A stretch of 64,000 bases of DNA. Origin: Chloroflexota bacterium. Lineage in GTDB: Bacteria > Chloroflexota > UBA6077 > SHYK01. Each line of letters opens with the position of its first letter. Positions within the stretch are counted from its first letter, which is position 1. The notes beneath the pieces were generated by a model. That model was not told the DNA's origin, ran no database searches, and saw nothing but the letters and a program-made list of their open reading frames with translations. Where the stretch lies: NCBI GenBank assembly GCA_009692845.1, contig SHYK01000001.1:438359-502358 (forward strand). The letters are read 5' to 3'. Below are positions 11,121 to 62,142 of the stretch, in pieces. A program made the position numbers and the translations under genes.

Positions 11121-12107
11121 GTGCAGCCGGAGCAAGCTTCCTTCGTCATTGTCGGGGCCGGAGCGGTGGGGACCGTGCTGGCCGGGTGTCTGGCCAGGGC
11201 TGCGCATCGGGTCACCCTCATAACCCGTCCCAGTTACGTCGCTCAGATGAACGACGGCCTGCTGCGCGTTTTCGGAATCAGCGATTTCGAGGTCCGAGTG
11301 CAGGTGGCCGGGGAGCTCCATGAGGGATCGCCGGACTATCTGATTCTGGCGGTGAAGACGCCGGATACCGAGGGTGCGCTGGCGGCGGTACAGGGGCTGG
11401 CTCCAAAGACGGTTCTCTCGCTCCAGAATGGGCTGGCCAAAGACCAAATCCTTTCGAAGGTATTTGGGCGAGAAAAGGTGCTGGGGGCGACCAGCATCAT
11501 CGGAGCCAGCATGGTTCAGCCGGGAGTTGCCGAGCACACTTTCAACGGGGCCACACTGCTCGGGGAGCTGGAAGGAGCACCAAGCGAGCGAGCGATGCGG
11601 CTGGCCGATATCCTCTCATGGGCCGGCTTGCGTGCGGAGGTGACGGACAACATCGGGGCGGCCGAGTGGTCGAAGCTTTGCCAGTACGCACCCGCCGCCC
11701 TTGTCTCGGTTTTGAGTCGCCTTCCTTACTATCAGATCTGTTTGAGCGAGCCACTGGCCGAAGTCTTTGTGCAATTGACTCGCGAGTGCGCGGCGGTCGC
11801 AACCGCCTGTGGCTCCGAGGTGGGCGACTATCCCGGTTTCAACATCAAGAGCCTGGTCGAAGTCTCGGAATCCGAAGCCGTACGATCGATCGTGGAGCGG
11901 GGAGAGGACATGGAGAGACGCGGAATGACGGGCATGCGCATCTCGATGTTGCAAGACGTTGAGCGTGGCCATCCGACCGAATTGGAAGAAACGATCGGGG
12001 ACGTTGTGCGGCGGGGCGCGGAAGCGAACGTGCCGGTGCCGTGGATGCGGCTCGGCTACCTCGTGGTGCGCGGGATCGAAGCCAACTGGCGGCGTCCCAC
12101 CCGATGA
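11121..12107 (+). CDS. panE: 2-dehydropantoate 2-reductase (ApbA/PanE family)
   Basis: 328 aa. It has the N-terminal Rossmann motif FVIVGAGAVGTVLAG, and its length and C-terminal domain are typical of ketopantoate reductases. Confidence 0.8.
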   Translation: MQPEQASFVIVGAGAVGTVLAGCLARAAHRVTLITRPSYVAQMNDGLLRVFGISDFEVRVQVAGELHEGSPDYLILAVKTPDTEGALAAVQGLAPKTVLSLQNGLAKDQILSKVFGREKVLGATSIIGASMVQPGVAEHTFNGATLLGELEGAPSERAMRLADILSWAGLRAEVTDNIGAAEWSKLCQYAPAALVSVLSRLPYYQICLSEPLAEVFVQLTRECAAVATACGSEVGDYPGFNIKSLVEVSESEAVRSIVERGEDMERRGMTGMRISMLQDVERGHPTELEETIGDVVRRGAEANVPVPWMRLGYLVVRGIEANWRRPTR

Positions 12108-12472
12108 CGGATGTCATTCGGCTCAACCGAATGAGCTTCTTTGGCCACCACGGGGTGCTCCCTGAAGAGCAGAAGCTGGGCCAGCGCTACGAGGTGGATC
12201 TGGAGGTTCGGTCGGACCTGCAGGCGGCCGGTCTAACGGATGACCTTGACGCGACGTTGAACTATTCGGAGCTGTACCGAACGACTGAGTCGATCATCGT
12301 CGGGTCACCCCGGCGGCTCATCGAAGCGCTGGCTGAGCGGATCGCCACTGCGGTGCTGGAGCGGTTTGGGTCCGCGCAAAGTGTCGTGGTCCGGGTGCGC
12401 AAGCTGCATCCACCAATTGAAGGGGCTTTCCTCGAGAGCTCCGAAGTGGAGATCGAGCGATGGCGACTTTGA
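12104..12472 (+). CDS. folB: dihydroneopterin aldolase
   Basis: This is the frame of ORF 12041..12472. ATG 12104 overlaps the panE stop (ATGA). RLNRMSFFGHHGVLPEEQKLGQRYEVDLEV is the FolB signature region. Confidence 0.85.
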   Translation: MTDVIRLNRMSFFGHHGVLPEEQKLGQRYEVDLEVRSDLQAAGLTDDLDATLNYSELYRTTESIIVGSPRRLIEALAERIATAVLERFGSAQSVVVRVRKLHPPIEGAFLESSEVEIERWRL

Positions 12473-13017
12473 CCGGCGGCGTCGACGGTATTCCAACTGG
12501 AGTCCTCGGAAGGGACTCTATTCGGGAGCTGTTGAAGGCGCCTGATCCGATCGTTGACCGAATTCGCGACGTTGACGCCCAGCTGCAGCCGCATGGCATC
12601 GACCTCACGGTTGAGGCGGTTTGGCAATTCGCCGGGCGGGGCGCTCTGGGGCCGGAGCGGCGGCTTCCCGATCGGATTCGAGCGGTTTCCTCTGACGGTT
12701 GGTACCAGTTGGCACCAGGCTCATACGTAGTGACGCTGTATGAGTCGATCAAGCTGCCCGAGGACTTGATGGCGCTGATTTTTCCTCGGTCGACGTTGCT
12801 GCGTTGCGGGGGGCGCCTGGGGACGGCGGTGATTGATGCCGGGTATCAGGGGCAGCTCGAGGTGCTGCTTTCGGTAGAAAATCCGTTCGGGCTGAGCCTG
12901 GCGGCCGCGGCCACGCTTTGCCAGGTCGTTTTCTTTCCATTGAGCGAGAAAGTGGAAGGCTATCAAGGGTTCTATCAAGGGAAATATCTAAATGAAGATG
13001 TGTCCTCTCAGGGTTAG
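12460..13017 (+). CDS. dCTP deaminase/dUTPase-superfamily protein
   Basis: 185 aa. LQPHGIDLTV, LIFPRSTLLRCG and VIDAGYQGQLEVLL resemble the dCTP deaminase / archaeal-type dUTPase fold. It overlaps the folB end by 13 nt. Confidence 0.7.
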   Translation: MATLTGGVDGIPTGVLGRDSIRELLKAPDPIVDRIRDVDAQLQPHGIDLTVEAVWQFAGRGALGPERRLPDRIRAVSSDGWYQLAPGSYVVTLYESIKLPEDLMALIFPRSTLLRCGGRLGTAVIDAGYQGQLEVLLSVENPFGLSLAAAATLCQVVFFPLSEKVEGYQGFYQGKYLNEDVSSQG

Positions 13018-13066
13018 CCGAGTGCCTATGGGTCATGCATAATCCAATAGAGCACCCAATTGGGAA

Positions 13067-15130
13067 ATGGGCTGGAGCGAAGCTTTGAGTGATGGAGTCT
13101 CGGTCGTGGGGAATCTTGGTCATCCGGCTGGGCGAGGCTGGATCGCCGTTGCGGGCGCCTCTACGCTACTCGGGGTTGCTCTAGCCATCAGCGTGGCATT
13201 TCAGCTGGCTTATGCCGACCGCATAGTCGCCGGCGTAAAGGTTCTGGGACTAGACCTGGGAGGCCAGACGCCTCCGGTTGGTCGGGCTCTGTTGGAGACC
13301 AGTGCCGCTCAGCTTGGTCAGCAGTTGGTGACGCTCAAGGCGGGAGGCCGAGAGTGGCAGCTAAGTGTCGTCGATCTGGGCACCCAGATGGACGCCGACG
13401 CAATGGTGCAACAGGCCTATGAAATCGGGAGGGCGGGCAATCCCCTGCAGCGGGTCGGGGCCCAGTGGAGCGCGCTGTTCTTTGGCACTCGCTTTGTCAG
13501 CCCCGTGGTGCAGTTCGATTCCGAGCGGCAAGATGCCGTGCTCCAGCGCATCGCCGCCGAGATCGATCAGCCGTCCCTGAACGCTCGCATTGATCCTCAA
13601 ATTAGCCAGGATGGGCGGGTGAGCTTCGCCACGGTTCCTGAACGTCCGGGCAGCCGCCTGCGCATCTCGGAGTCTGCCCAACGCGTGCGGGAGGCCATTT
13701 CTCGGGGATTACCGGCCACGGTGGACCTGATAATCGGAATCGAGCAGCCGGGGCTCACGACGGCCAACGTCGAGTCCGTCCGGTCCCGAGCCAGTCAAAT
13801 GGCCGCTGGTCCCGTGGCTTTGAGCTACGGATCGTCGACCTGGGACCTCAGTCCTCAGGAAATCGCGCGAACTATCGCTTTCCAGAGTGCGGGAGGGGCT
13901 GACCTCCGAATTGCCGTGGACCCTGACACCCTGAGCAGGGTGGCGAATCGAATCGACGCCCAGCTAGGTCAGCCCGCGACGAATGCTCGTTTCGACTGGA
14001 ATGGGGGCTCTCCTCGGCCCATTCGAGCGAGCCAGGATGGCATGGGGGTAGATTTCGCTGCGCTCGCACAAACGTTGCAGGACCGGTTGCCCGCCGAGCG
14101 GAGCTTCGCGATTCCGCTGACCACGACCCGCGCGTTAGTTACCGCGGATGATGGCGCCAAGCTGGGGTTGAAGGAGTTGATCAAACAAGGCCGTACCACA
14201 TTTCCGGGCGCTACGGCGGAGAAGCAATTCAACATCAAGCTGGCATCTTCTCGGCTGGACGGGACGGTGGTAGCACCTGGAGAGCTGTTCTCGTTCAACA
14301 AGGAAGTTGGTCCGACGACCCTCGAGGCCGGCTTCAAAACCGGGTGGGGAATCACCCTTTCGGATACCGGCGCCCACACCATTCCCTCGGTCGCGGGCGG
14401 AATCTGCCAGGTTGCGACCACCCTGTTTCAGCCGATTTTCCACGCCGGCTACGCCATCGAAGAGCGAAACTACCATCTCTACTGGATCCAATCTTATGGA
14501 CAGGCGCCACTCGGGATGAAGGGCCTCGATGCCACTGTGGATGAGGCCTATGGGCTGGATCTCCGATTTATCAACAATACGACGGACTATCTGCTGGTTG
14601 GGTCGCGGGTTGAAGGAACGACGCTCTTGTTCGACCTCTACGGAACCAAGCCGACCTGGGACGTAAAAATTGGCGCGCCGACTATCAGCAACGTCGTTCC
14701 AACCGATCCAACTCTGATTCGAGAGGTGGAGCCGACCATGCCTCCGGGCAGGTCATTGCAGGTCGAGACGGCCCAGGATGGATTCGACGTAACCGTCAAC
14801 CGGACCGTCACTCTGGGCGACGACGTCCGCCGGCTCCCGCTTCGGAGTCACTATCTGCCGGCCCACAACGTGATCCTGTTCGGGGGGGAGCTGCCCGCGG
14901 TCGAGGCCGACCCGAGCTCGCCCACCAATCCAGCGAGCCCACCTGGGTCGAATCAGAACACGTCGCCCGCCGTCACGCCCCAGCCCAACAGTGCGACCCC
15001 GGTCGCGACTGCGCAACCCACGAACGTGAGCGTCACCGCTCAGCCCACGGCCGGGCAGCCCACCGCGAGCGCGACGGCCGCACCGAAGCAAACCCAGCCA
15101 ATTGCCACTCTCCAGGCTCCCCGACCGTGA
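13067..15130 (+). CDS. VanW-family protein with G5-like domain and Pro-rich tail
   Basis: 687 aa with an N-terminal TM anchor. The VanW core is FSFNKEVGPTTLEAGFKTGWGI...GGICQVATTLFQPIFHAGY. A G5-like segment (VPTDPTLIREVEPTMPPGRSLQVETAQDGFDVTVNRTV) and a P/T/A/Q-rich C-terminus follow. Confidence 0.85.
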   Translation: MGWSEALSDGVSVVGNLGHPAGRGWIAVAGASTLLGVALAISVAFQLAYADRIVAGVKVLGLDLGGQTPPVGRALLETSAAQLGQQLVTLKAGGREWQLSVVDLGTQMDADAMVQQAYEIGRAGNPLQRVGAQWSALFFGTRFVSPVVQFDSERQDAVLQRIAAEIDQPSLNARIDPQISQDGRVSFATVPERPGSRLRISESAQRVREAISRGLPATVDLIIGIEQPGLTTANVESVRSRASQMAAGPVALSYGSSTWDLSPQEIARTIAFQSAGGADLRIAVDPDTLSRVANRIDAQLGQPATNARFDWNGGSPRPIRASQDGMGVDFAALAQTLQDRLPAERSFAIPLTTTRALVTADDGAKLGLKELIKQGRTTFPGATAEKQFNIKLASSRLDGTVVAPGELFSFNKEVGPTTLEAGFKTGWGITLSDTGAHTIPSVAGGICQVATTLFQPIFHAGYAIEERNYHLYWIQSYGQAPLGMKGLDATVDEAYGLDLRFINNTTDYLLVGSRVEGTTLLFDLYGTKPTWDVKIGAPTISNVVPTDPTLIREVEPTMPPGRSLQVETAQDGFDVTVNRTVTLGDDVRRLPLRSHYLPAHNVILFGGELPAVEADPSSPTNPASPPGSNQNTSPAVTPQPNSATPVATAQPTNVSVTAQPTAGQPTASATAAPKQTQPIATLQAPRP

Positions 15131-49215: not shown

Positions 49216-50682
49216 ATGGGGCCAGAAGAATATCTGCACGATGCAGAAGGGTTCACTCGCTCGCTCAGCGCTGAGCAGTATGTGGCTCGATCCGGGCTCA
49301 AGGCGACTCTCGACCTCGCCCCCATCTATGAGCGATATCCTCACCTCTTCGAAGGAGATCGGTTTGCGGAAGCGAGCCGTTGGGATATCGACCCCCGTCA
49401 GCTTCATCATCTGCTCGACTTTATCGCGCATGGCTACGCCGAGGATCAGAGTCGGGACTCTGCTGAGCGGGCGGCAGCGATGGAAACCAGTCTGACCGTG
49501 GATTGGGACGAGGCCCCGGTGCCCTACCGCCAGGTCCCGGCATTGATTGCTGGCGAAGCCAACGCCGTTCGCCGGCATGCCCTCGAGGCGAAGTATTTGA
49601 CCGCTATGACGACTCTCAATTCTCCCCTCGAAGCGGGGGAAAAACGCAAGCAGCGGGCCGGTCGCCAGTTCGGTCATGCTGACTACGTGGCCATGTACGA
49701 CGAATTACGCGGCTTCGACCTGGCTGGTCTCACCGCGACGATGAAGAAGTTCATTGCCGATACCCACGACCTCTATTTCTCGACCCTGGACACCTACCTC
49801 CACGAGATGCACATCCTGCGCGAAGATGCCCGCCGCTGTGACCTCAGCCGTATTTTTCGGGCCCCTCACCATGATGTGAGCTTTCCGTCTGACCAGATGC
49901 TGCCGCGCCTTCACTCAGCCTTGCGGGATCTCGGGATCCTGCTCGGCGACCAACCCAACATTCATGTTGATGCCGAGCCTCGGCCTCTGAAGTCGCCCCG
50001 CGCCTTCTGTGCCATCATCGGGGTGCCGGATGAGATCCGGCTGGTCGTGAAGCCGTCCGGCGGTGAGCAGGACTACGAATCGTTGTTTCACGAGGCCGGC
50101 CACGCGGAGCATTACGGGAGCGTCGGCCGCACCGAGCCCTTTGCCTACCGCTATCTGGGCGACCCGTCGGTTACCGAGAGCTACGCTTTCTTGTTCGAGT
50201 ACTTGCTTCACGACGCCAACTGGTTGCGCCGTAACCTGGCTATGGATGCGACGAACTTCTTCCATCTGGTCGGCTTTCAGCGCCTGTACATGCTGCGCCG
50301 GTATGGATCCAAGCTCATTTATGAGCAGGAGCTCCATCGGTCCAACGAGCCCGGCGACGTGGCGACTTACTATGATGACCTCATGAGCCAAAATCTGGGC
50401 GCGACCTACGGACCGGAAAGCTTTCTCACGGACGTGGACGACGGCTTCTACTGCGCGGCCTATCTGCGCGCCTGGATCTTTGAGGCGCAGCATCGGCGGT
50501 TTTTGCTCAAGGAGTTCGACCAGGAGTGGTTCCGTAACCCCAAGGCGGGTAGGTTTTTGGTGGAGTTGTGGCGAGAAGGACAGAAGTACTCGGTGGAGGA
50601 GTTGGCCCGGTTCATGGGCTTCGAGCAGCTGGACATTGGCGTGGTCACGCAGGATATTCGCCGGCTCCTGGGCGCAGAATGA
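49216..50682 (+). CDS. M3-like zinc metallopeptidase (oligoendopeptidase F-like)
   Basis: 488 aa. [10 protein letters not shown] is the HExxH motif in a helical M3-type context. Confidence 0.65.
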
Positions 50683-51726: not shown

Positions 51727-54700
51727 TCAGTCCAGGATTTCGGCCGCTGATCTTAGGGCCCCTTCCTCCTGCCCTCGGCCAAAAAGGCCGCGAAGAAATG
51801 CCCGCTCCTGTTTACCCACGCCGCCGATCGCGAACAAGACCGCGCCATAGGCCACCGCTGAGAGGACGATCACCCCGGCCAATGGCCAAGATGCCAGGCC
51901 CCAGGTGACCAGCCCCATTGCGAGCCCGGCCACTATCGGTCGCCAGGCCAGCGCGAGCAGGTGGACCGGCCCGACGTAGCGCTGGATGGCATACCAGAAC
52001 GGACCGAGCAGGATGAGCTCGGAGGCGATGGTGGCCGCCGCCGCCCCCACGTAGGCGAATCGAGGAATAAGAATCAGGTTCGCGGCAATGTTGAACGCAC
52101 TGGCCAGCACGAAGGCCCAGGTAATGAACCGCTGTTGGTTGACCGCAATGAGCACGTACTGCAACAGGCTATTGACGAAGCTAAACGGCAGGAACCAGAT
52201 CAGCACCTGCAGCGCGACTACCGAGTGCGGAATATATGCCTCGCCGGCCACGATTCGAATGATCGGCTCGGCGAGCAGCGTGGTCCCGAAGGCAATTGGG
52301 AAAGCTGCGCTGAGTAGCGTCTTCAGAGCGAGCTCAACCGTTGGGATTAGACGGTCGCTGGACCCGGCGAGCCTCGAGAAGATCGGGAAGAGGGCGAGGG
52401 TGAATTGGGATGGGATGAGGTTGAGGCCGTCGATGAACTTATAGGCGGCGCCGTACCAACCCAGGACCGTGTCCCCCCAGATTGGTCGCAGGATCAATCC
52501 GTCCACTCGAAAGAACAGGGTGGAGAGCAGGTTGTTGAGCATCAACGGGTATGACGTGAGTACGAGCTTCACCGAAAATCTGGGTTCCATCGACAAACCT
52601 GGCCAGCCCACCACCTCGGCTAGAAGTACGACCAGGGCGACCGCGGTAATGGTATTTACGGCGATCGACACCGCCGCGAGTCCCACGATCCCGAAGCCGA
52701 GCAGCAGCACGCTGACCCCGCCCACCAGCTTGAGCACCGCGGTCAGGTTGCCGACATAGGCTGGGTATTCCATCAGCTCGCGGGAGTTCATGACCGCCGT
52801 AACCAGCCCCGACAGGTTCGAAATCGCGATCCCGACCGCCAGTAACACCAGCGTCAGGCCCATCTCGGGGGTTAGCTCGATCAGCGGCCCCAGTGGCCCG
52901 GCCACCACGCCCGCGATGACTAACGCAACCATAGAGAGGGTCAGCCGGGCGGCGGCGGCTGAGCCCAGATAACGGGAAGTTGCGGCGGCGTCGCGCGCGA
53001 GATCGCGGGTCAGGAGCACGCCCAGGCCGAAGTTGGCCAGGATATCCAGGTACCCGATCACCAGCACTGCCCACGTGTAGCGACCCACGTCCGTGGGACC
53101 CAGGACCCGCAGCATTACGATTGCCAGGCCCAGGTCGAGCACCTTGTTGAGGCCGCCGGCCGCCATCGGCACCGCTGCGTTCTTCACGACCCGGGCGAGA
53201 GTCGAGCGCCGAGCGTAGCGAGCGATGATCCCCTGCCAGCTCGTAATGGCGGCCAGAATGACGATCACCAGCAGCCCTGTCCCGGACAGCAACAGTGCGA
53301 TCCGCCAGCTGTACGGTTGGTAGGCGAAAACTACGTCATGGCCGCCGGGTCCCAGCTCAATGGCTCGAAAGAGGCCGTCCGCCCGCAGAATCGTTTGCGG
53401 GTTGCCGTCGACATAGGCGGTCCAGCCGGGAAAGGCGACGTCAAACAGGACCAGGTAGCCACCCGCCGAGGAGCTTGCCTGGATGCGCACTTCCTCGTTG
53501 GCGTAGCTGGTCACCTGAGCGGTGCCGGCCGGTCTGGGGGCTTGCTCGGTGACCGATCCCTCCAACGCAGCCACGTTGGCAGGGTTGATGGCTTTGGTCA
53601 CCACCTGAGCCATCGCATCCTCCTGCGAGACCGCCGCTATGGCGCTGCCGACGAGGAGCACGCGAGGCAAGGCGGTACTCCGTCGATACACCTTGGTCGG
53701 ACCGTCGTAGACCAGCGCAAGCTGGGGGTCGCTCAACGTATCGCGAGTAAAGACGTACCGAACGCCGAGGGCGTCGACCAGCGGAGAGCCCAGGGTCTTC
53801 GGGTCGGTAAGCGCCTCGATCCGGTTGAAGGCCAGGCTGGCCCGGACATTGTCCGCGTCGATTGCACTGGCGTAGCGGACGTAGTCCTGCTGGATGATGC
53901 TGTCGTATCCGCGGATGTCTTCGAGTCCGAACAGCGCGCCGGTATTCGCGGGGAGCACGTCATGATCGAAGGCAGTAATGCGAAAAGGCCCGGCCCATCC
54001 GCTACTGGCCACGTCGTGGCGGAGGGCACGAACCGAAGGCGGCACATAGTCAAGGACCTTAGGATCGCCGGCCGTGCCGTAGCCGATGCCGAAGGCAAAC
54101 AGGTCGACCAGGCTAACGGCGATGAGGACTGAGGGACCGAATCGAAATCGGGCACTCAGGAGGATTCCGGCTCCGCTGGCTAAGAGCAGGATCGTAGCGA
54201 TTGCGACGTTGGCCCACTGGTACGAGAACAAGGATCCGCCATCCAAGAAAGCGTCGGTCAGCCGGTCGGAGCCCCTGATTGCGCTTTCTGCCCAGCCGAT
54301 GACCTGGCCCCGGACACCGATCGCTGGATCATCGAGCATGCTCAGGAGCAAACCGCCAGAGATGATTCCGCCGAGACCGAGGACCCCCAACCCGATCTGA
54401 CGCACCCTGGTCGGGGCAGCGCTGGATAGTGCAGTCAGGGCTAGCCCGGCCAGCGCCGCGGCAGCAAACGAGTACGGGAAGATCCACCGAAATGGGGTGC
54501 GGAGCTGGGAGTACCCCGGGACCAACGAGTACAGGATCCCGAATAGAGGCGTCCCAAAGGCGATCAGAAGCGCGAAAACGGCGATCAGGGCCAAAGGCCA
54601 GCGCTGGGGGGCACGGCTCAGCCATGGAGCGAGGACGGCCAGGAGCAGTGCGACAATGCCGATATAGGCGGTTCCCTCGACAAAGTTCTTTTTGCCCCAC

Positions 54701-55740
54701 TCGGTCGTCCCCGCGTCATTGCTTGCGCTGGCCGGCCGCCACGAGAGAGTCGTTAGGTCGAACACCCGGTGATGGGTTGGGTTCCCGAAGACGTTCGGAA
54801 TGACAAAGGCCAGAGCAGCCTCGCGGGGCAGCGCATAACCACGAACCTGGTCGTAGGTGGTTCCCCCTACCCGATAGTTGGTGGCGCCGGCTTCCGTCAG
54901 GGGCACCAGTTGCACGGCAGCCAGCAGACCTCCGAGGAGGAAGCCGCCGCTCAAGGCCGCGACACTGATAGCGGTGTCGGCTAGCCGACGCGATCGCCGT
55001 AGGCATTGGATCAGGCGCGCGGACGCGTACAGCGCGGGCGCCGCGAGGTTGTAGAAGGCGATCTCGGGGTGGCCGCCGGTAAGCTGCAAGCCAGTTGCCA
55101 CGCTCAGGATCAGAAGTGTGAACAGAATCGCTCGGGCGCCCTTCCTCTGCTCCACCCCGATGATTGTTCGCTCGACGCCCCACAGGATCAGCGGGAGCCA
55201 TATCGCCGTGGCGATCATCTGGGGCCACATGGTGCTCACGGTCAGGAAGCCGCACAGCCCGAAGGAGACCGCGGCCAGCGTGCTGCCGACCCGGTTGGCG
55301 CCAATCTCACGCATGAAGAGATGCGTGAAGACCATGCCGAGCCATAGATGGAGTGCTATGAACCACACATACCACCGCGCTGGAGGAAGGAAGTTGAGCG
55401 CGATCGCCGGTGGGTAGAGGGCTTGATTCTGCCCGGTGGCCAGAAAGGCCTGGCCTCCAAAGATGTTGGGGTTCCACAAGGGGGGCTGCCCCGATGCCCA
55501 GCTCGCTTGAGCGAGGAGTCGCCAAGAGATGTTCTGGAGGATCGAATCCGACGACAGCATGTTGTTAGGACGAGTGAGGTCAAGCTCTTCAGCCGACTCC
55601 CGCCAGGGGCCGAAAGCCACCAGATTGTCGGTCGGCAGGAGAACTCGGTTGGTGAGCAGCACCGGGGAAAAGAACGCCAGCACGATGGCGACGTAGAGGA
55701 TTGGGATGGCGGCCCGGGAAGCCAGGGCCCGTCCTACCAC
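51727..55740 (-). CDS. fusion protein: YfhO-like GT-C glycosyltransferase (N-terminal ~865 aa) + MOP/Wzx-type polysaccharide flippase (C-terminal ~470 aa)
   Basis: A single 1337-aa ORF. The N-terminal part is multi-TM with an extracytoplasmic domain ending LVLFDVAFPGWTAYVDGNPQTILRADGLFRAIELGPGGHDVVFAYQP plus a final TM helix, the typical YfhO family ending. A cytoplasmic RYARRSTLARVVKN linker follows, then 12-14 TM helices with flippase-like segments (LGPTDVGRYTWAVLVIGYLDI, WYGAAYKF, NIAANLILIPRF). The GTG start overlaps the stop of the upstream GT2 gene by 7 nt. Confidence 0.8.
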   Translation of the reverse strand: MVGRALASRAAIPILYVAIVLAFFSPVLLTNRVLLPTDNLVAFGPWRESAEELDLTRPNNMLSSDSILQNISWRLLAQASWASGQPPLWNPNIFGGQAFLATGQNQALYPPAIALNFLPPARWYVWFIALHLWLGMVFTHLFMREIGANRVGSTLAAVSFGLCGFLTVSTMWPQMIATAIWLPLILWGVERTIIGVEQRKGARAILFTLLILSVATGLQLTGGHPEIAFYNLAAPALYASARLIQCLRRSRRLADTAISVAALSGGFLLGGLLAAVQLVPLTEAGATNYRVGGTTYDQVRGYALPREAALAFVIPNVFGNPTHHRVFDLTTLSWRPASASNDAGTTEWGKKNFVEGTAYIGIVALLLAVLAPWLSRAPQRWPLALIAVFALLIAFGTPLFGILYSLVPGYSQLRTPFRWIFPYSFAAAALAGLALTALSSAAPTRVRQIGLGVLGLGGIISGGLLLSMLDDPAIGVRGQVIGWAESAIRGSDRLTDAFLDGGSLFSYQWANVAIATILLLASGAGILLSARFRFGPSVLIAVSLVDLFAFGIGYGTAGDPKVLDYVPPSVRALRHDVASSGWAGPFRITAFDHDVLPANTGALFGLEDIRGYDSIIQQDYVRYASAIDADNVRASLAFNRIEALTDPKTLGSPLVDALGVRYVFTRDTLSDPQLALVYDGPTKVYRRSTALPRVLLVGSAIAAVSQEDAMAQVVTKAINPANVAALEGSVTEQAPRPAGTAQVTSYANEEVRIQASSSAGGYLVLFDVAFPGWTAYVDGNPQTILRADGLFRAIELGPGGHDVVFAYQPYSWRIALLLSGTGLLVIVILAAITSWQGIIARYARRSTLARVVKNAAVPMAAGGLNKVLDLGLAIVMLRVLGPTDVGRYTWAVLVIGYLDILANFGLGVLLTRDLARDAAATSRYLGSAAAARLTLSMVALVIAGVVAGPLGPLIELTPEMGLTLVLLAVGIAISNLSGLVTAVMNSRELMEYPAYVGNLTAVLKLVGGVSVLLLGFGIVGLAAVSIAVNTITAVALVVLLAEVVGWPGLSMEPRFSVKLVLTSYPLMLNNLLSTLFFRVDGLILRPIWGDTVLGWYGAAYKFIDGLNLIPSQFTLALFPIFSRLAGSSDRLIPTVELALKTLLSAAFPIAFGTTLLAEPIIRIVAGEAYIPHSVVALQVLIWFLPFSFVNSLLQYVLIAVNQQRFITWAFVLASAFNIAANLILIPRFAYVGAAAATIASELILLGPFWYAIQRYVGPVHLLALAWRPIVAGLAMGLVTWGLASWPLAGVIVLSAVAYGAVLFAIGGVGKQERAFLRGLFGRGQEEGALRSAAEILD

Positions 55741-56519
55741 CGAGATCGAATCTGCCAGACCCGCCAGGTGGCTTCAGTGATGATTTTCAGGGACATTTTG
55801 GAGGTTCCCCGCACCCGCTCCTCGAAGTAGATCGGGAGCTCAGCCACCTTAAGGCCGTACCGGTGACACGCCATCGCCACCTCGATTTGGAAAGCGTAGC
55901 CATCGGATCGAACTCGATGGAGCGGTAGCTTGCGCAGGGCGGCCGCTCGATAGGCCTTGAATCCGGCGGTTGGATCGTAGACCGGGAGGCCCGTGACCCA
56001 GCGCGCATACAGATTGGCGTACTTGCTGAGAAGGTAGCGCCAGAGTGGCCAGTTCTCATCGAGTTTCCCACCCGGCGCCCACCGCGAGCCGACGACCACG
56101 TCGTTCTCATTCAGCAGACGGAGCATCTGGGGCAGATATTCCGGCGAATGGGAAAAGTCCGCGTCCATTTCGAAGACGACGTCTGCGCCTCGCTCGAGAG
56201 CGAGGGAGAAGCCGGCGATGTACGCGGTGCCGAGGCCGAGCTTGCCGGCCCGGTGCAGGATGTGCAGTCTGCCCGGTCGCTCGCGCGCGATGCGCTCAGC
56301 CAGGTCCCCGGTGCCGTCCGGTGAGTTGTCGTCCACCACAAGGATCGATACCTGGATGTCTTCAGGAGCCCGGCTGGTTTCTGGCTCGGGGGACCCGGCC
56401 AGCTCTCGGAGGCTCACCGGACCCGTGGCGGGCCAATCCAGCTTGTCGAGCAGCGTGGTGACCATGATTTCCAGATTGTCTGCCTCGTTGTAGGTAGGCA
56501 TGACGATCCAGATGTTCAA
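55734..56519 (-). CDS. GT2 polyprenyl-phosphate sugar synthase (Dpm1/Ppm1-like)
   Basis: 261 aa. VMPTYNEADNL, ILVVDDNSPDGT, MDADFSH and YAFQIE are seen. A ~25-aa insert follows the first strand. No C-terminal TM helix is present. Confidence 0.88.
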   Translation of the reverse strand: MNIWIVMPTYNEADNLEIMVTTLLDKLDWPATGPVSLRELAGSPEPETSRAPEDIQVSILVVDDNSPDGTGDLAERIARERPGRLHILHRAGKLGLGTAYIAGFSLALERGADVVFEMDADFSHSPEYLPQMLRLLNENDVVVGSRWAPGGKLDENWPLWRYLLSKYANLYARWVTGLPVYDPTAGFKAYRAAALRKLPLHRVRSDGYAFQIEVAMACHRYGLKVAELPIYFEERVRGTSKMSLKIITEATWRVWQIRSRW

Positions 56520-56768: not shown

Positions 56769-57614
56769 ATCCGAGACGTCACTTCGAAGCCAGTTGTAAT
56801 CTGGGGCCCGTCCCAAGACTGGCTGCAATCCGCGCTCGGGCGCCCGGCCGAGATCTGGCACTATCGCGGGCTCCTGGCGAACCTGGTTCTGCGCGACGTA
56901 CGGCTCCGTTATCGGGGTACCGTGCTCGGAGTGATTTGGTGCCTCCTGAACCCCCTGGCTATGACTCTAATTTTTACGCTGCTCTTCACCGTCTTCATGC
57001 CAAACAAGGCGATATCGAACTTCCCAGTTTTTGCTCTGATCGGGGTGCTCGTGTGGAATTTCCATGCCAGCTCCATCGTGGGGGGCATCCAGAGTATCAC
57101 GGCCAACAGCGCCCTGCTCACCAAGACGCATTTTCCGCGCGAGCTGCTCCCGCTCTCGATGGTGCTGTCCAATGGCGTGAACTTCCTGTTCGCGATTCCG
57201 ATCCTGGTGGCGTTTCTGATGCTGTTCGGGATCGGCATTGGTTGGGGGCTGCTATTGCTCCCGATCGTGGTGCTGATTCAAATCGGCTTCCTGGCGGGCT
57301 TCGCCTTTATCTTTGCCACCGCCAACGTCTACTACCGGGACACTGGCATCATCATGGAATCCCTGCTGCTGGCTTGGTTCTTCCTGACGCCCGTTTTCTA
57401 CCAGCCCCAGGACTTGTTTCCTGAATGGCAGCGGTTGCTGTATATCGTGAACCCGGTGGCATCAGTCTTAGCGAGCTACCGAGACATCCTGTATTCCAAT
57501 GCCGCCCCAGAAGGACTCTTTTTGCTGCGAAGCGCCACCGAAGCGGGGGCCTTTCTCATCTTCGGGTGGCTCATCTTTCACCGTTTCGCGGATCGGTTTG
57601 TCGAAGAGCTATGA
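56769..57614 (+). CDS. ABC-2 type polysaccharide export permease (Wzm/TagG-like)
   Basis: The ORF track starts at GTG 56922, but that codon lies inside the conserved RD..LRYRGTVLGVIW motif. The frame is open back to 56709 with no ATG/GTG/TTG. GAGAGG (56755-56760) plus 8 nt plus ATC 56769 is the tentative start. Six TM helices follow. Confidence 0.8.
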   Translation: MRDVTSKPVVIWGPSQDWLQSALGRPAEIWHYRGLLANLVLRDVRLRYRGTVLGVIWCLLNPLAMTLIFTLLFTVFMPNKAISNFPVFALIGVLVWNFHASSIVGGIQSITANSALLTKTHFPRELLPLSMVLSNGVNFLFAIPILVAFLMLFGIGIGWGLLLLPIVVLIQIGFLAGFAFIFATANVYYRDTGIIMESLLLAWFFLTPVFYQPQDLFPEWQRLLYIVNPVASVLASYRDILYSNAAPEGLFLLRSATEAGAFLIFGWLIFHRFADRFVEEL

Positions 57615-58432
57615 CCGTCGCCTTGCCAGTCGCATTCGCTAGTCAGCCGCCTGCCGTCGTGGGGACGGTTACGAGTTTGCAGTTCGAAGCGGTCTCCAAG
57701 CGGTTCACCCTCGAGCACGCCCAGGCCCGCTCATTCCAGGAAGCGTGGATTCGCTTGATCCACCGGCGGCGGGACCCTTCGCGAGAGGATTTCTGGGCCC
57801 TCAACAACGTTTCATTTGAGGTGCACGCCGGGGAGATGCTCGGCGTGATCGGTCGGAATGGCTCGGGGAAGAGCACGTTGCTCCGGGTGGCGGCGCGGAC
57901 GGTACGGCCCACGACGGGGCGGGTCTTGATCAGAGGCCGCGTAACCCCGCTGCTGGAGCTGGGCGCGGGATTTCATCCGGAGTTGAGTGGCCGAGACAAT
58001 ATCTACCTCAATGGGTCGGTCCTCGGCCTCTCGCGAGCGGAAATTTCGGACCGATACGCCGATATCGTTGGGTTCGCGGAGCTCGAGCATTTCATCGATA
58101 CCCCGCTAAAGCACTATTCGAGTGGAATGTGGCTCCGATTGGGATTCGGCGTCGCGGTCTACACCGATGCCGACATATTGCTCATCGACGAAACCCTGGC
58201 GGTGGGTGATGCCCAGTTCCAGGCGAAATGCTTCGACCGCATTGCCGAGCTGCGGAATCGAGGAACGACGATCCTCCTGGTCAGCCACGATCTTGGACTG
58301 GTTTCCACCATGTGCGACCGTGCTTTGTGGCTCGAAAGCGGTTCGGTACGCGCGGCCGGTCAGGCTTCCACTGTGGTTGCTGAGTATCAGGACGGAGCCG
58401 AGCCCGCGCGAGTCGGTGAGCCCAGAACATGA
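57611..58432 (+). CDS. polysaccharide ABC exporter ATP-binding protein (Wzt/TagH-like, NBD only)
   Basis: The frame is ORF 57425..58432. ATG 57611 overlaps the wzm stop (ATGA). Walker A is GRNGSGKSTLL, the signature is YSSGMWLRL, and Walker B is ILLIDE. At 273 aa there is no C-terminal glycan-binding domain. Confidence 0.9.
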   Translation: MTVALPVAFASQPPAVVGTVTSLQFEAVSKRFTLEHAQARSFQEAWIRLIHRRRDPSREDFWALNNVSFEVHAGEMLGVIGRNGSGKSTLLRVAARTVRPTTGRVLIRGRVTPLLELGAGFHPELSGRDNIYLNGSVLGLSRAEISDRYADIVGFAELEHFIDTPLKHYSSGMWLRLGFGVAVYTDADILLIDETLAVGDAQFQAKCFDRIAELRNRGTTILLVSHDLGLVSTMCDRALWLESGSVRAAGQASTVVAEYQDGAEPARVGEPRT

Positions 58433-59448
58433 TTCGCGAGCCTGATTTGGTGGTTCAGGCAGAGAGCCGATTGGCTGGGATCGAAAGCCTCCGCCATGCT
58501 CCGGACGTTCCCCCAATGGATCTCGACAGCAGTCGACACGGGTGGCCGGGGCGGGTCGTCAAACGGTTGGTTGCCCGACTGTTGAGCTACCACAGCTTTT
58601 ATCAGCAGCGGGTGAACCTCGCCTTCGCCGCCTTTCAGCGGGAGCTTGAGCTGAGAAGTGATCGACAGGCTCTCGAGATTGCCACTGCTTTGGCTCAAAT
58701 CGATACGCTGTCAGCTGCGGGAGAAGGGCTCAGGCAACGGCTCGAGGAACTGTCGGCCCTGATCGCGGCGCGACCCTACATGGCGTATGACGCCTTCGGA
58801 ACGATCGGGGACCCATCCGACGTGATGGGCTATGGCCCAGAGGCAGGAAGAGCCCTCGAAGGGCAAGCTCGATTTGAAGAGCTGTTTCGGGGATCGGCCG
58901 AGTTTATCGCCGAACGGCAACGGATCTACGTCCCGTTCTTTACGAAATGCAGCAATGTGTTGGACGTAGGGGCCGGCCGAGGAGAATTTCTGCAGCTGTT
59001 GGAGCAGGCGGGTATTCCGGCCGTTGGGGTGGATCTGGACCCGGTCCTTTGCGAGCGGTGCCGGGAGCAAGGCCTGAATGTCCTGTGCGTTGATGCATTC
59101 GACTATCTCGCTAGCTCCGCAGATGAATCATTTGATGGAGTGTTCTGCGCGCAAGTCATCGAGCATTTCGAGAGCTCACGGCTGATCGAATTTCTCGGCC
59201 TGGTGCGCCAGAAGCTACGGCCCGGTGGTGTGCTGGTAGCCGAGACGGTGAATCCTGAGTCTTACGCTGCACTCAAGACTTTCCACGTCGACCTGACCCA
59301 TCAGCGCCCCATCTTTCCAGAGGTGCTCCTTTATCTATGCCATGAAGCTGGCTACCCAAGCGCGCGGGTCTTTTATCCTCAGGGAGGCGGGTTCGACCAG
59401 CGAAACTATGCGGGGTGTGGCGAGTATGCCGTCGTCGCCACCCGATGA
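58429..59448 (+). CDS. class I SAM-dependent methyltransferase with N-terminal coiled-coil-like region
   Basis: 339 aa. VLDVGAGRGEF is motif I, followed by FDGVFCAQVIEHF and GGVLVAET. The N-terminal ~150 aa are helical and heptad-like. The ATG overlaps the wzt stop (ATGA). Confidence 0.8.
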   Translation: MIREPDLVVQAESRLAGIESLRHAPDVPPMDLDSSRHGWPGRVVKRLVARLLSYHSFYQQRVNLAFAAFQRELELRSDRQALEIATALAQIDTLSAAGEGLRQRLEELSALIAARPYMAYDAFGTIGDPSDVMGYGPEAGRALEGQARFEELFRGSAEFIAERQRIYVPFFTKCSNVLDVGAGRGEFLQLLEQAGIPAVGVDLDPVLCERCREQGLNVLCVDAFDYLASSADESFDGVFCAQVIEHFESSRLIEFLGLVRQKLRPGGVLVAETVNPESYAALKTFHVDLTHQRPIFPEVLLYLCHEAGYPSARVFYPQGGGFDQRNYAGCGEYAVVATR

Positions 59449-59523
59449 TCCCTCGTGGCGGTTGGCAATTCGCGGCGGGCGTGTGACGCGGGTCATTGAT
59501 TCTCCTCCAGGGGTAACCGAGCT

Positions 59524-62142
59524 TTGAGTGCTTCGAGCCTGGGCTCATCCGGGGCCTGTACCATCATCGCCAAGAATTACCTGGCTTATGCCCGAGTTCT
59601 CGCGGAGTCCTTCACCCGACACAATCCAGGGATTCCGTTTTTTGTTCTGTTGGCTGACAAGAATGACGGGCGAATAAGCGCCGCGGAAGAGCCGTTCGAG
59701 CTAGTGGAAATCGAGCAGCTCGGCATTCAGGGCCTGCCGGGCATGTGCTTTCGCTACAACGTCCAAGAGTTCAGCACGGCCGTGAAACCCTTCCTGCTCG
59801 AGTATCTCCTCCGGCATCGTGGGCTGGCGAACGTGCTCTATCTCGATCCAGACATCCTGGTGTTGGACAGCCTCTCGGAGCTGTATGGAACGCTCGACGC
59901 CTCATCGGTAGTGCTGACGCCGCACATCACCACTCCGATGGCGGACGACTTCAAGCCTCGGGAAATCGACCTGCTCCAGGCCGGTGTGTACAACCTTGGC
60001 TTCATCGGAGTCCATTCGGATCCCGAAACCTACAGCTTCCTGGGCTGGTGGCAAGAGAAGCTTCGGGCCCATGGGCACGTTTCCCCCGAGAGCGGCATGT
60101 TTTTCGATCAAAAGTGGATCGATTTTGCCCCGGCGTTTCTCGAACACGCCAGGATCTTGAGGGACCCGGGTTACAACGTCGCCTACTGGAATCTTGCTTC
60201 TCGCAAAGTGACCCACGAAGGTGATTCGGTTCGGGTCAACGGTGAACCCGGATATTTCTTCCACTTCAGTGGATTTGACCCGACCAAACCCAAAGCCATT
60301 TCCAAGCACCAGGATCGATTGAGCATGTCGACAGTGGGAGATGCTCGCGGATTGTTCGAAGCCTATGCAAAGCGACTGCTAAACGCGGGGTATGAAGAAG
60401 CCACCGGGTGGCCCTATCATTTCAACCGCTTCGACAATGGAATACGTATTCCAGCCGAGGCGCGCGCCATTTATGCTGGGCTCGGCCAAGCAGCCGCGCA
60501 ATTCGGCGATCCGTTCAAGAGCGATGAGACCAACAGCTTTTTTATCTGGCTGAGCAGCCCCGCCCCCGCCGAACGGGGCGGTGGCCCGATCACCAGGTTG
60601 TGGTTCGACGTGTACCGTCACCGAGTGGATCTCCAGGCGGCCTTCCCGGACCTCTTTGGAAGGGACCGCGATGCCTTCGTCCACTGGGTGCGAAACGGCA
60701 GCCGTCGAGAATACGACATCGACGGTGCCTTCATTCCTCGCGCTACGCCGGGAAACCCTCCGAGCAAATCGTCCGGTGGCTCAGCGCCGGTCGTCTCAGA
60801 CGATCCCGCTCCGGCCAGAGCGGCCGACCCCGGCAATGGGACCGAGACCTTAGGCATTAACGTCGCCGGGTACTTCACGTCCGAGAAGGGGGTCGGTGAA
60901 GCGGCAAGATCGGCCCTACGGGCAATTTCGGCGGCAGGAATTCCCCATGTACTGAACAATTTCATGGACTACGGTGGCGAGAACTTAGTTGCTGGGCAGA
61001 GGAAGTTCCAAACCGACAACCCCTATGGAACCAACTTGATCAATGTCAACGCCGATCAGGTTCCTGAATTCGTCCGGATTTGGGGCTCGGCCTATTTCAA
61101 AGACCGATACAACATCGGGGTTTGGAACTGGGAATTGGCTGCTTTTCCCGAAGAATGGCTGCCGTTTTTCGACCCGTTTGACGAAATCTGGGTCGCTTCC
61201 AGCTTCGAGCAGGACGCGGTCTCGCGGGTATCCCCGGTTCCGGTGGTGCGAATTCCCTATCCAATGGTGTTCGAGCCGCACCCCCAACCCGCCCAGGTCC
61301 GGGAGCGATTGGGTATCCCCAACACCAGCGTGGTTTTTCTGTTCGTGTTTGACTTCATGAGCTACTTCGAGCGAAAGAATCCCCTGGCGGTCATCGAAGC
61401 GTTCCGACGCAGCTTCAAGCCGGACGATGATGCGGCCCTGGTCATCAAATGCGCCCATTCTGATTTCTTTTCCTCCGGCCTGGCCTCTATCAAAGAGGCG
61501 GGGCAGGGGGCCAGAGTTCTCATCGTCGATGAGTTGCTCGATCGCGGAGAACTCAACGGACTGCTGCAGACTTCAGATTGTTATGTGTCGCTACATCGGT
61601 CGGAGGGTTTCGGGCTGACCCTGGCCGAGGCCATGGCAGCGGGGAAACCGGTCATCGCGACTGGATACTCGGGGAATCTCGATTTCATGAGTCCGGCGAA
61701 TAGCTTTTTGGTGGACTACAAGCTAGTAGAGATTGAAGAGGATAGTGGACCGTACAAACGCGGCGCGGTTTGGGCCGCGCCGGACGTCGGACGCGCTGCC
61801 GAGTACATGCGCTTTGTTTATGAACACCCCGACCAAGCCCAGGAACTCGGTCAACGGGCACAAGTGGACATCCGCGATCTGCTGGATCCCATGTCGATAG
61901 GTGGCCTCATCCGAGCGCGGCTCGAGCGGATTACCACCTTGGAGCGGAATCCGACCAAGCGAATGCGAGAAACGCTCGGAAGAGCAACGTCGCCTGGAAT
62001 GTTTCCGCCTCCAACTCCCCTATGGCGGCTCCCCCTCAAGGCCGTCGGCTTTCTCGGGGCCGGCGGCCCGGCTCGGCTTTCCGAGGAGGTGCGCTCATAT
62101 CTCCGTTGGAGAAGTGCCCGGCCGACGGGACGAAAACGCTAG
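59524..62142 (+). CDS. two-domain glycosyltransferase (N-terminal GT-A/DxD domain + C-terminal GT4/GT-B domain)
   Basis: 872 aa. The N-terminus has CTIIAKNYLAYARVLAESF...LYLDPDILVLDS (DxD). The C-terminus has SLHRSEGFGLTLAEAMAAGKPVIATGYSGNLDF, a Glycos_transf_1-type motif. Confidence 0.85.
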   Translation: MSASSLGSSGACTIIAKNYLAYARVLAESFTRHNPGIPFFVLLADKNDGRISAAEEPFELVEIEQLGIQGLPGMCFRYNVQEFSTAVKPFLLEYLLRHRGLANVLYLDPDILVLDSLSELYGTLDASSVVLTPHITTPMADDFKPREIDLLQAGVYNLGFIGVHSDPETYSFLGWWQEKLRAHGHVSPESGMFFDQKWIDFAPAFLEHARILRDPGYNVAYWNLASRKVTHEGDSVRVNGEPGYFFHFSGFDPTKPKAISKHQDRLSMSTVGDARGLFEAYAKRLLNAGYEEATGWPYHFNRFDNGIRIPAEARAIYAGLGQAAAQFGDPFKSDETNSFFIWLSSPAPAERGGGPITRLWFDVYRHRVDLQAAFPDLFGRDRDAFVHWVRNGSRREYDIDGAFIPRATPGNPPSKSSGGSAPVVSDDPAPARAADPGNGTETLGINVAGYFTSEKGVGEAARSALRAISAAGIPHVLNNFMDYGGENLVAGQRKFQTDNPYGTNLINVNADQVPEFVRIWGSAYFKDRYNIGVWNWELAAFPEEWLPFFDPFDEIWVASSFEQDAVSRVSPVPVVRIPYPMVFEPHPQPAQVRERLGIPNTSVVFLFVFDFMSYFERKNPLAVIEAFRRSFKPDDDAALVIKCAHSDFFSSGLASIKEAGQGARVLIVDELLDRGELNGLLQTSDCYVSLHRSEGFGLTLAEAMAAGKPVIATGYSGNLDFMSPANSFLVDYKLVEIEEDSGPYKRGAVWAAPDVGRAAEYMRFVYEHPDQAQELGQRAQVDIRDLLDPMSIGGLIRARLERITTLERNPTKRMRETLGRATSPGMFPPPTPLWRLPLKAVGFLGAGGPARLSEEVRSYLRWRSARPTGRKR

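Follow-up and report, generated by a model that had tools for sequence, protein, structure and literature searches.

Glycosylation at the membrane's outer side has been reviewed as following two layouts, the second of which combines a cytoplasmic GT-A glycosyltransferase (GT) and its membrane partner with the Wzx-type protein GacK and the GT-C enzyme GacL, acting on an ABC-exported rhamnan (PMC8035078). In Streptococcus pyogenes, a gacK mutant was found to be devoid of the N-acetylglucosamine side chain, the role of GacK as a flippase being explicitly hypothetical (10.1101/180810). The acceptors of YfhO-family enzymes include teichoic acids (PMC8035078) and protein regions rich in Ser/Thr (10.1101/2024.05.05.592596), and the mechanism by which dolichol-phosphate-mannose and dolichol-phosphate-glucose are translocated in eukaryotes has been described as unknown (PMC12992685). 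Flippases for polyprenyl-phosphate sugars represent the least proven part of extracytoplasmic glycosylation, the role of GtrA/GtcA, GacK, AglR and a MATE-family protein of Citrobacter having been assigned mainly via genetics or gene context. The present analysis concerns a stretch of 64,000 nucleotides (referred to here as the window, with positions counted from its first letter) from contig SHYK01000001.1 of a Chloroflexota bacterium (assembly GCA_009692845.1, positions 438,359 to 502,358 of the forward strand), in which a single open reading frame (ORF) encodes a YfhO-type GT-C enzyme followed by a MOP/Wzx-type flippase, directly downstream of a gene for a GT2-family enzyme. To our knowledge, little is apparently known of cell-envelope glycosylation in Chloroflexota.

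A recurrent fusion of YfhO- and MOP-type proteins

An earlier annotation, made from the letters of the window alone (referred to here as the original prediction), had reported one unbroken ORF of 1337 codons that overlaps an upstream GT2 gene by 7 nt, and had quoted several peptide strings from its product. Frame and overlap were both confirmed by the ORF list, and the quoted strings were found in the translation of the fusion, which contains FPGWTAYVDG...FRAIELGPGGHDVVFAYQP, followed by the helix IALLLSGTGLLVIVILAAI and then by RYARRSTLARVVKN. The genes concerned are the following:

51727..55740, minus strand: fusion ORF encoding a YfhO-type GT-C enzyme and then a MOP/Wzx-type flippase; 1337 codons plus stop, GTG start
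55734..56519, minus strand: GT2 ORF of 261 aa with a TTG start, directly upstream of the fusion ORF
55734..55740, minus strand: 7 nt in which the GT2 stop overlaps the GTG start of the fusion, from the ORF coordinates

The overlap between the stop and start codons is a probable case of translational coupling. The G+C content within the window was 58-65%, with no compositional break at the fusion locus; a promoter scan at the locus returned no match, and terminator-like sites were no commoner there than expected by chance.

The identical 1337-aa product was observed in the metagenome-assembled genome held by NCBI ('Chloroflexi bacterium', EXR58_02335, on a 516-kb contig), in the ENA assembly and in an independent Logan assembly of SRR8561391. 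A search of a 5.8-billion-protein collection yielded approximately 50 cluster representatives of 1272-1500 aa, sharing 33-60% identity over their full length and nearly all matching both Pfam families; those that carry a name bear no annotation beyond 'oligosaccharide flippase family protein'. Furthermore, 857 representatives were retrieved at E <= 1e-30 by an exhaustive HMMER search that used residues 500-1337 as its query and, among the best 150 of these matches, many were shown to cross the junction in one aligned stretch.

When one genome per GTDB species was scanned, at least 580 confirmed relatives were identified, the best 80 of which were retained as genome loci. Almost all of the recovered loci stem from metagenome-assembled genomes. 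All of these loci were fused across residues ~25-1320, save two that were clipped by contig ends. The contig labels of the 80 loci comprised Chloroflexota, Anaerolineae, Ardenticatenales, Caldilineae, Thermoflexales, Promineifilaceae and Dehalococcoidia; the module is widespread in Chloroflexota and has gone unannotated as such. Two further labels were encountered, Acidobacteriota at locus L041 and Patescibacteria at L059, both of which carry a typical fused gene with GT2 upstream and are probably mis-binned Chloroflexota contigs, this being likelier than lateral transfer.

At locus L081 (8001-11898; JBEEQD010001541.1, GCA_041890195.1), a relative of the fusion is present as two overlapping ORFs of 866 and 441 aa, with GT2 retained upstream and an ABC-2/Wzt cluster nearby. 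This locus was rejected as a clean split orthologue, as tblastn revealed a deletion of ~75 codons together with a frame change within the fused gene, the missing part comprising the end of the beta domain, transmembrane (TM) helix 14 and the linker. The alignment points to a broken or decaying fused gene, or to an assembly error, and not to an ancestral split. The survey for fused orthologues that had been suggested alongside the original prediction therefore came out in favour of the fusion, which is not an assembly artefact: three assemblies hold the identical ORF, the 80 loci are fused in one frame, the junction region is aligned without a break, and invariant polar residues occur in both halves.

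Among unfused YfhO proteins, the closest one found showed 36% identity and the next best 27-29%, while many stand-alone MOP proteins of 480-550 aa were found with 49-58% identity to the C-terminal half. A midpoint-rooted neighbour-joining tree built from the MOP domain placed the window's trio of fused proteins (P0001-P0003) beside stand-alone clades, with all remaining fused proteins branching further out. Since the fused trio groups with stand-alone clades, either the fused state has been prone to change in evolution or the tree cannot be relied on; its topology would fit a single old fusion followed by losses as well as fusion on several occasions. The extra N-terminal helix of some stand-alone MOP proteins was considered as a remnant of TM14 of the YfhO half and was rejected, because a hidden Markov model (HMM) of residues 800-842 matched apparent fused-gene fragments only (P0355 and others, E at most 1e-6), the stand-alone clades P0321, P0295, P0152 and P0334 scoring no higher than shuffled controls.

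The stand-alone MOP genes at L083, L084 and L085/L086 (7001-8554 or 10001-11455) were always found after an M17 leucyl-aminopeptidase gene. Two of the three stand-alone MOP loci also contain a divergent Wzt-type ABC ATPase, a methyltransferase, an 850-aa GT2+GT4 enzyme, a DUF6541 membrane protein and an ABC-2 permease. The DUF6541 protein was considered as a possible replacement for the YfhO half, to which it shows no pairwise similarity.

Predicted folds of the fusion protein and its GT2 partner

Separate Pfam scans of residues 1-865 and 866-1337 returned the families that had been expected, i.e. YfhO and Polysacc_synt/MOP, respectively. The YfhO profile PF09586, for which the curated cut-off is 28.5 bits, scored 68.1 bits with residues 1-865 alone and 54.7 bits with the whole fusion protein. 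As its alignment consists of only two collinear patches (residues 124-209 and 742-819), the YfhO half represents a divergent member of the family. For residues 1-1200, an AlphaFold2 (AF2) model based on 44 fused homologues reached a mean predicted local distance difference test (pLDDT) of 91.8 and a predicted template-modelling score (pTM) of 0.90. In this model, TM1 (2-23) is followed by a long outside loop (24-119), twelve more TM helices up to residue 554, a domain spanning residues 555-808, and TM14 (810-843), so that the YfhO half is predicted to have 14 TM helices in a GT-C architecture. The protein was divided accordingly:

54079..55740, minus strand: YfhO membrane module, residues 1-554 (TM1-TM13), including the first extracytoplasmic loop 24-119; from AF2 helices (pLDDT mostly >90), Foldseek and a Pfam patch
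55546..55548, minus strand: codon of Asp65, which lies in the first extracytoplasmic loop and is a candidate for the GT-C catalytic acid; from conservation
53317..54078, minus strand: predicted extracytoplasmic domain of the YfhO half, residues 555-808, with an alpha/beta part and a beta-sandwich; from AF2 strands 587-807 and Pfam patch 742-819
53203..53316, minus strand: TM14 (~residues 810-843) and a very short cytoplasmic turn (RRS) into the N-terminal helix of the MOP domain; from AF2, with helix 810-843, a 3-residue break and a helix from 847
51730..53202, minus strand: MOP-superfamily (PST/Wzx-like) flippase domain, residues 847-1337, 14 TM helices; from Pfam, AF2 and Foldseek

Foldseek comparison of the N-terminal part with the PDB retrieved the GT-C enzymes AftD (6w98), ArnT (5ezm, 5f15) and AftA (8if8), and the C-terminal part of the same model matched WzxE, MATE proteins and MurJ. 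The donors of ArnT and of the mycobacterial arabinosyltransferases are polyprenyl-monophosphate sugars. These relatives came from fold comparison only, as PDB searches by sequence gave no match, whether the query was the whole protein or a 36-sequence profile. The NCBIfam matches of the fusion (Wzx_EPS and PgfM2) were weak and all sub-threshold. The earlier description of this half as a full YfhO-family enzyme was thus upheld as regards the score above the Pfam cut-off and the predicted GT-C fold, but has to be qualified, as the half is divergent and aligns to the profile in two patches only.

Residue conservation was assessed in 94 collected proteins of at least 1250 aa. Asp65 was identical in 94 of the 94 fused proteins and is also kept in 89% of 66 distant unfused YfhO-family proteins. 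On this pattern of conservation, it is the foremost candidate for the GT-C domain's catalytic acid. Beside D65, the conserved residues of the YfhO half included W89, R144, H224, R290, R418, R587 and W773, with R587, R693 and W773 being common to fused and unfused YfhO proteins. The domain formed by residues 555-808 is the probable acceptor-binding region.

The C-terminal half (residues 866-1337) matched Polysacc_synt_3 (75 bits), Polysacc_synt (64.3 bits) and MurJ (32.4 bits), all of which exceed the Pfam cut-offs, and the same three families were matched by the whole fusion protein. For residues 840-1337, an AF2 model based on 60 sequences showed a pLDDT of 93.5 and a pTM of 0.91, and was compared by Foldseek with MurJ (7waw; template-modelling score 0.78 over ~500 columns) and WzxE (9g9p; template-modelling score 0.82 normalised to the target, 20% identity). 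These matches indicate that the C-terminal half adopts a 14-TM MOP flippase fold, predicted to consist of two 6-TM lobes and two extra C-terminal helices, as in MurJ. Profiles and predicted fold therefore bear out the earlier identification of this half as a MOP/Wzx-type flippase. R912 and R932 were invariant, and R878 was at least 90% conserved, in fused and stand-alone relatives alike, which makes these arginines candidates for the cationic residues of the central cavity; the retention of R912 and R932, together with the conserved residues of the YfhO half, is indicative of purifying selection on both halves.

Residues 833-866 include six Lys/Arg and no Asp/Glu, from which the positive-inside rule places this segment in the cytoplasm, and a crude hydropathy count agreed with the AF2 topology. 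The argument that the YfhO half ends inside, where the MOP half begins, consequently holds, with 14 TM helices leading through a Lys/Arg-rich turn into a 14-TM MOP domain.

The upstream GT2 matched PF00535 at 95 bits, and its nearest solved relative was dolichol-phosphate-mannose synthase (DPMS) of Pyrococcus furiosus (5mlz, E 6.4e-29), followed by ArnC, in agreement with the Dpm1/Ppm1-like enzyme of the original prediction. The alignment covers residues 23-246 of the P. furiosus enzyme only, i.e. its catalytic domain, with the PTYNE, VVDDxSPD and MDAD motifs aligned. The window GT2 has no TM helix and terminates at its C-terminal end where the TM domain of the P. furiosus enzyme starts, its orthologues being ~250 aa in length. 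As the alignment stops before the TM domain, the protein is a candidate TM-less polyprenyl-phosphate sugar synthase consisting of the catalytic domain only, unlike GtrB, CsbB, ArnC and type-III DPMS, which have membrane-anchoring TM helices. Human DPM1 needs a membrane partner. The TM-less GT2 may likewise be compared with GacI, a GT-A enzyme that needs a membrane partner (PMC8035078). No equivalog-level NCBIfam match was found that would give the sugar specificity of the GT2; AglJ (the best match), PpgS, ArnC, the haloarchaeal dolichyl-phosphate hexose transferase and PgfS all scored far below their cut-offs.

Compared with P. furiosus DPMS, the GT2 carries an insertion of ~28 residues (LLDKLDWPATGPVSLRELAGSPEPETSRAPEDIQ) past the first beta strand, at residues ~23-50. 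The orthologue at locus L025 is shorter around this insertion, at which the HMMER alignment splits.

Conserved GT2 linkage and proposed function

The conservation of the GT2 gene was examined by tblastn at the 71 loci among the best 80 that had room upstream. A GT2 orthologue (41-55% identity) was located directly upstream and on the same strand in 42 of these 71 loci, and within 4.4 kb of the fusion in 46; it was also seen at two contig edges. The candidate start of the fusion overlaps the GT2 stop or lies within 20 nt of it in 27 of 43 loci, ten of which show a 4-nt overlap. De novo clustering of four neighbours per side identified the GT2 as the sole strongly conserved neighbour, the next commonest being a response regulator and an Asp/Asn-tRNA synthetase. 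The coupling to a conserved GT2 neighbour that had been read from the window thus extends to its relatives. In most species, the two-gene module was observed alone amid housekeeping genes, with an acceptor-polymer cluster not nearby.

We consider it probable that the two overlapping genes constitute a compact, multi-component transmembrane glycosylation system. The soluble, DPMS-like GT2 would act at the cytoplasmic face and load one sugar from a nucleotide sugar onto polyprenyl phosphate, after which the C-terminal 14-TM MOP domain would carry the polyprenyl-phosphate-sugar to the outer leaflet, where the N-terminal YfhO-type GT-C domain, with its Asp65 loop and beta-rich domain outside, would transfer the sugar of the flipped donor to an extracytoplasmic acceptor. 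This acceptor may be a wall or surface glycan, or a protein; the original prediction had named a wall polymer, which needs correction, as YfhO-family enzymes O-glycosylate proteins too (10.1101/2024.05.05.592596). The GT2 itself is devoid of a membrane domain and hence would probably bind to a partner in the membrane, for which the fusion protein is a possible candidate. Given that no more than one TM helix and a few turn residues connect the two domains, flippase and transferase are expected to sit side by side at a ratio of 1:1, which would favour a local hand-over, or channelling, of the donor lipid. In its most specific form, which is possible and is put forward tentatively, the fusion would be a single-chain 'flip-and-transfer' machine, in which a MOP flippase dedicated to a polyprenyl-monophosphate monosaccharide hands its lipid over laterally while the GT2 is docked in one complex.

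Several observations weigh against the proposed glycosylation system. Approximately one-third of the fused loci do not have a GT2 within 8 kb. Moreover, stand-alone MOP proteins (50-58% identity, on contigs of 59-99 kb) were found without an adjacent YfhO or DPMS-like GT2, indicating that the MOP module is not obligatorily tied to a YfhO-type GT-C enzyme. WzxE and MurJ, which are the most similar characterised MOP flippases, move pyrophosphate-linked oligosaccharide lipids and not monophosphate-linked monosaccharides. In addition, the flippase role of GacK, the precedent cited above, is itself hypothesised only (10.1101/180810).

WzxE and MurJ also lend themselves to a different reading, which we regard as unlikely, whereby the MOP domain would flip a lipid-linked oligosaccharide or polymer, pyrophosphate- or monophosphate-linked, like Wzx, MurJ and TacF, while the YfhO domain would decorate this product or, in the manner of an oligosaccharyltransferase or ligase, transfer it en bloc to an acceptor in the wall or on a protein. 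The GT2 would then initiate the lipid-linked glycan, like archaeal AglJ, or would feed a donor that crosses the membrane otherwise. Not only do the nearest folds of the C-terminal half both flip pyrophosphate-linked glycan lipids, but the existence of stand-alone relatives also suggests that the MOP module has a job of its own, and AglJ is the best NCBIfam match of the GT2, though far below the cut-off. Furthermore, the gene is situated beside a glycan-synthesis cluster in the window and at L081, L083 and L085. In the window, this cluster is arranged as follows:

56922..62142, plus strand: divergent neighbours, namely an ABC-2 permease, an ABC ATPase, an S-adenosylmethionine-dependent methyltransferase and an 872-aa GT4 enzyme; from Pfam matches and gene calls

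The cluster resembles an ABC-transporter-dependent glycan pathway and may supply an acceptor polymer. None of the 80 fused loci had this cluster within 8 kb, and an ABC ATPase with 50-56% identity was found close to the MOP gene at L081, L083 and L085, which are nearer relatives of the window; the association of the cluster with the fusion is lineage-specific. As the cluster possesses an ABC-2 exporter of its own, no Wzx protein is required for its product, which argues against flipping of an oligosaccharide by the MOP domain. The same is true of the conserved neighbourhood, where neither a phosphoglycosyltransferase nor further cytoplasmic GTs are conserved beside the fusion, only the DPMS-like GT2, and of the closest folds of the N-terminal half, since ArnT, AftD and AftA use single sugars linked to monophosphate lipids.

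A third reading, which appears improbable, differs from the favoured explanation in its product and is otherwise a variant of it: the YfhO domain would act as a processive polymerase and assemble an extracellular homopolymer directly out of flipped polyprenyl-phosphate sugars, in the manner of the mycobacterial Emb/Aft enzymes. The solitary position of the module among housekeeping genes, away from any acceptor-polymer cluster, would be consistent with such an activity, as would the presence of AftD and AftA among the closest folds. A similar route is suspected for the glucan of Lactobacillus johnsonii, for which a GtrB/GtrA pair is essential (PMC7117936). Conversely, those YfhO-family enzymes that have been characterised attach single sugars, either to teichoic acids or to proteins (PMC8035078; 10.1101/2024.05.05.592596). 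Finally, the notion that a missed stop or a frameshift joins two genes, or that one half has decayed and is non-functional, for which the separate overlapping ORFs at L081 might have spoken, is effectively refuted by the assemblies, the 80 loci and the deletion described above, and its probability is negligible.

If the single-chain reading is true, the recurrent fusion would constitute Rosetta-stone evidence for an activity of Wzx-type MOP proteins that has so far been hypothesised only, for GacK and for the Wzx-like AglR, namely the flipping of sugar lipids with a monophosphate linkage. The conserved fusion to a GT-C enzyme, in combination with the coupled DPMS-like synthase, provides a strong guilt-by-association argument for the assignment of the MOP domain as a flippase. 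The fusion would also offer one stable polypeptide for cryo-electron microscopy and for reconstituting flipping together with transfer, and the module marks a widespread and unstudied step of envelope glycosylation in Chloroflexota (Anaerolineae and relatives).

Other genes were repeatedly observed around the module. A response-regulator gene is located upstream of it in ~20 of the 80 loci, a gene for a V4R-domain protein in 11 and one for a Roadblock/LC7 protein in five. In six loci (L045, L057, L059, L065, L074 and L080), a PMT_2-family GT-C enzyme of ~690 aa is encoded directly downstream on the same strand (at about 12,000-14,200), several of these loci displaying the gene string GT2, YfhO-MOP, PMT_2; this arrangement would be compatible with a common pool of polyprenyl-phosphate-sugar donors. 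In the window, a 488-aa ORF with an HExxH-like motif (HEAGHAEH) and no Pfam family is present on the plus strand at 49216-50682, and in three related loci, among them L004, a homologue of this ORF was found downstream of the fusion, at a distance of a few genes. Past the glycan cluster, from 62324 onward and running off the window end at 64000, a large protein is encoded that looks secreted, contains internal repeats and has no Pfam match.

Comparison with described glycosylation systems

Judged by analogy, the system of the window would be functionally closest to the GacI/GacJ/GacK/GacL layout of S. pyogenes. In both cases, a cytoplasmic GT-A enzyme would produce a polyprenyl-phosphate sugar, a Wzx-family protein is the proposed flippase, and a GT-C enzyme would carry out the transfer outside; both also adjoin an ABC-transporter-dependent polysaccharide pathway. 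The two systems differ in that the GT-C enzyme and the Wzx-type protein of the window are one polypeptide, in that this GT-C enzyme belongs to the YfhO family whereas GacL is PMT_2-like, and in their hosts, a Firmicute in the former instance and a member of the Chloroflexota here. No GacJ-like small membrane ORF was found between the GT2 and the ABC-2 gene.

The CsbB-GtcA-YfhO systems of Bacillus subtilis, Staphylococcus aureus and Listeria resemble the window in that a YfhO-type GT-C enzyme is genetically paired with a lipid-charging GT2 and in that the final transfer is extracytoplasmic (PMC8035078, PMC7389260). Their flippase, however, is a small 4-TM protein of the GtrA type that is encoded elsewhere, their GT2 (CsbB) is membrane-anchored, and the YfhO domain from Chloroflexota is a distant relative. 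A GT2 is also paired with YfhO-family GT-C enzymes in streptococci, where PgtC2 and PgfM1 act with GtrB/PgfS (10.1101/2024.05.05.592596; PMC5856776), although the acceptors there are Ser/Thr-rich protein regions and a fused flippase is absent. As the NCBIfam scores fall far below the equivalog cut-offs, orthology to PgfM2/PgfS is not claimed.

In the O-antigen pentofuranose system of Citrobacter youngae, the MATE-family protein ORF14, and hence a member of the MOP superfamily, has been proposed as a flippase for a polyprenyl-phosphate sugar and is accompanied by a GT-C enzyme (PMC11127046). In contrast to the window, the components are separate proteins, the donor synthase is of the phosphoribosyltransferase type and not a GT2, and the GT-C enzyme belongs to family GT136. 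The AglD/AglR/AglS proteins of Haloferax volcanii include a DPMS-like GT2 that charges dolichol phosphate with mannose and a membrane transferase that adds the sugar outside, and AglR is implicated in delivering dolichol-phosphate-mannose across the membrane (PMC3871713). This system is archaeal, consists of separate proteins, and has as its acceptor the N-linked glycan of the S-layer glycoprotein.

The use of a MOP-type flippase, which the original prediction had presented as a novelty, was overstated, given that GacK (PMC8035078; 10.1101/180810) and ORF14 of Citrobacter (PMC11127046) had been proposed earlier. Its other claim in this respect, that the fusion has no characterised example, stands, as no description was found in the literature searched of a GT-C/flippase fusion or of a YfhO/Wzx-type architecture. 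The module is therefore not a new kind of system, since all three activities as well as the use of a Wzx-type flippase have precedents; what is new is the covalent fusion of the GT-C enzyme to the flippase, the components of the other described examples being separate polypeptides.

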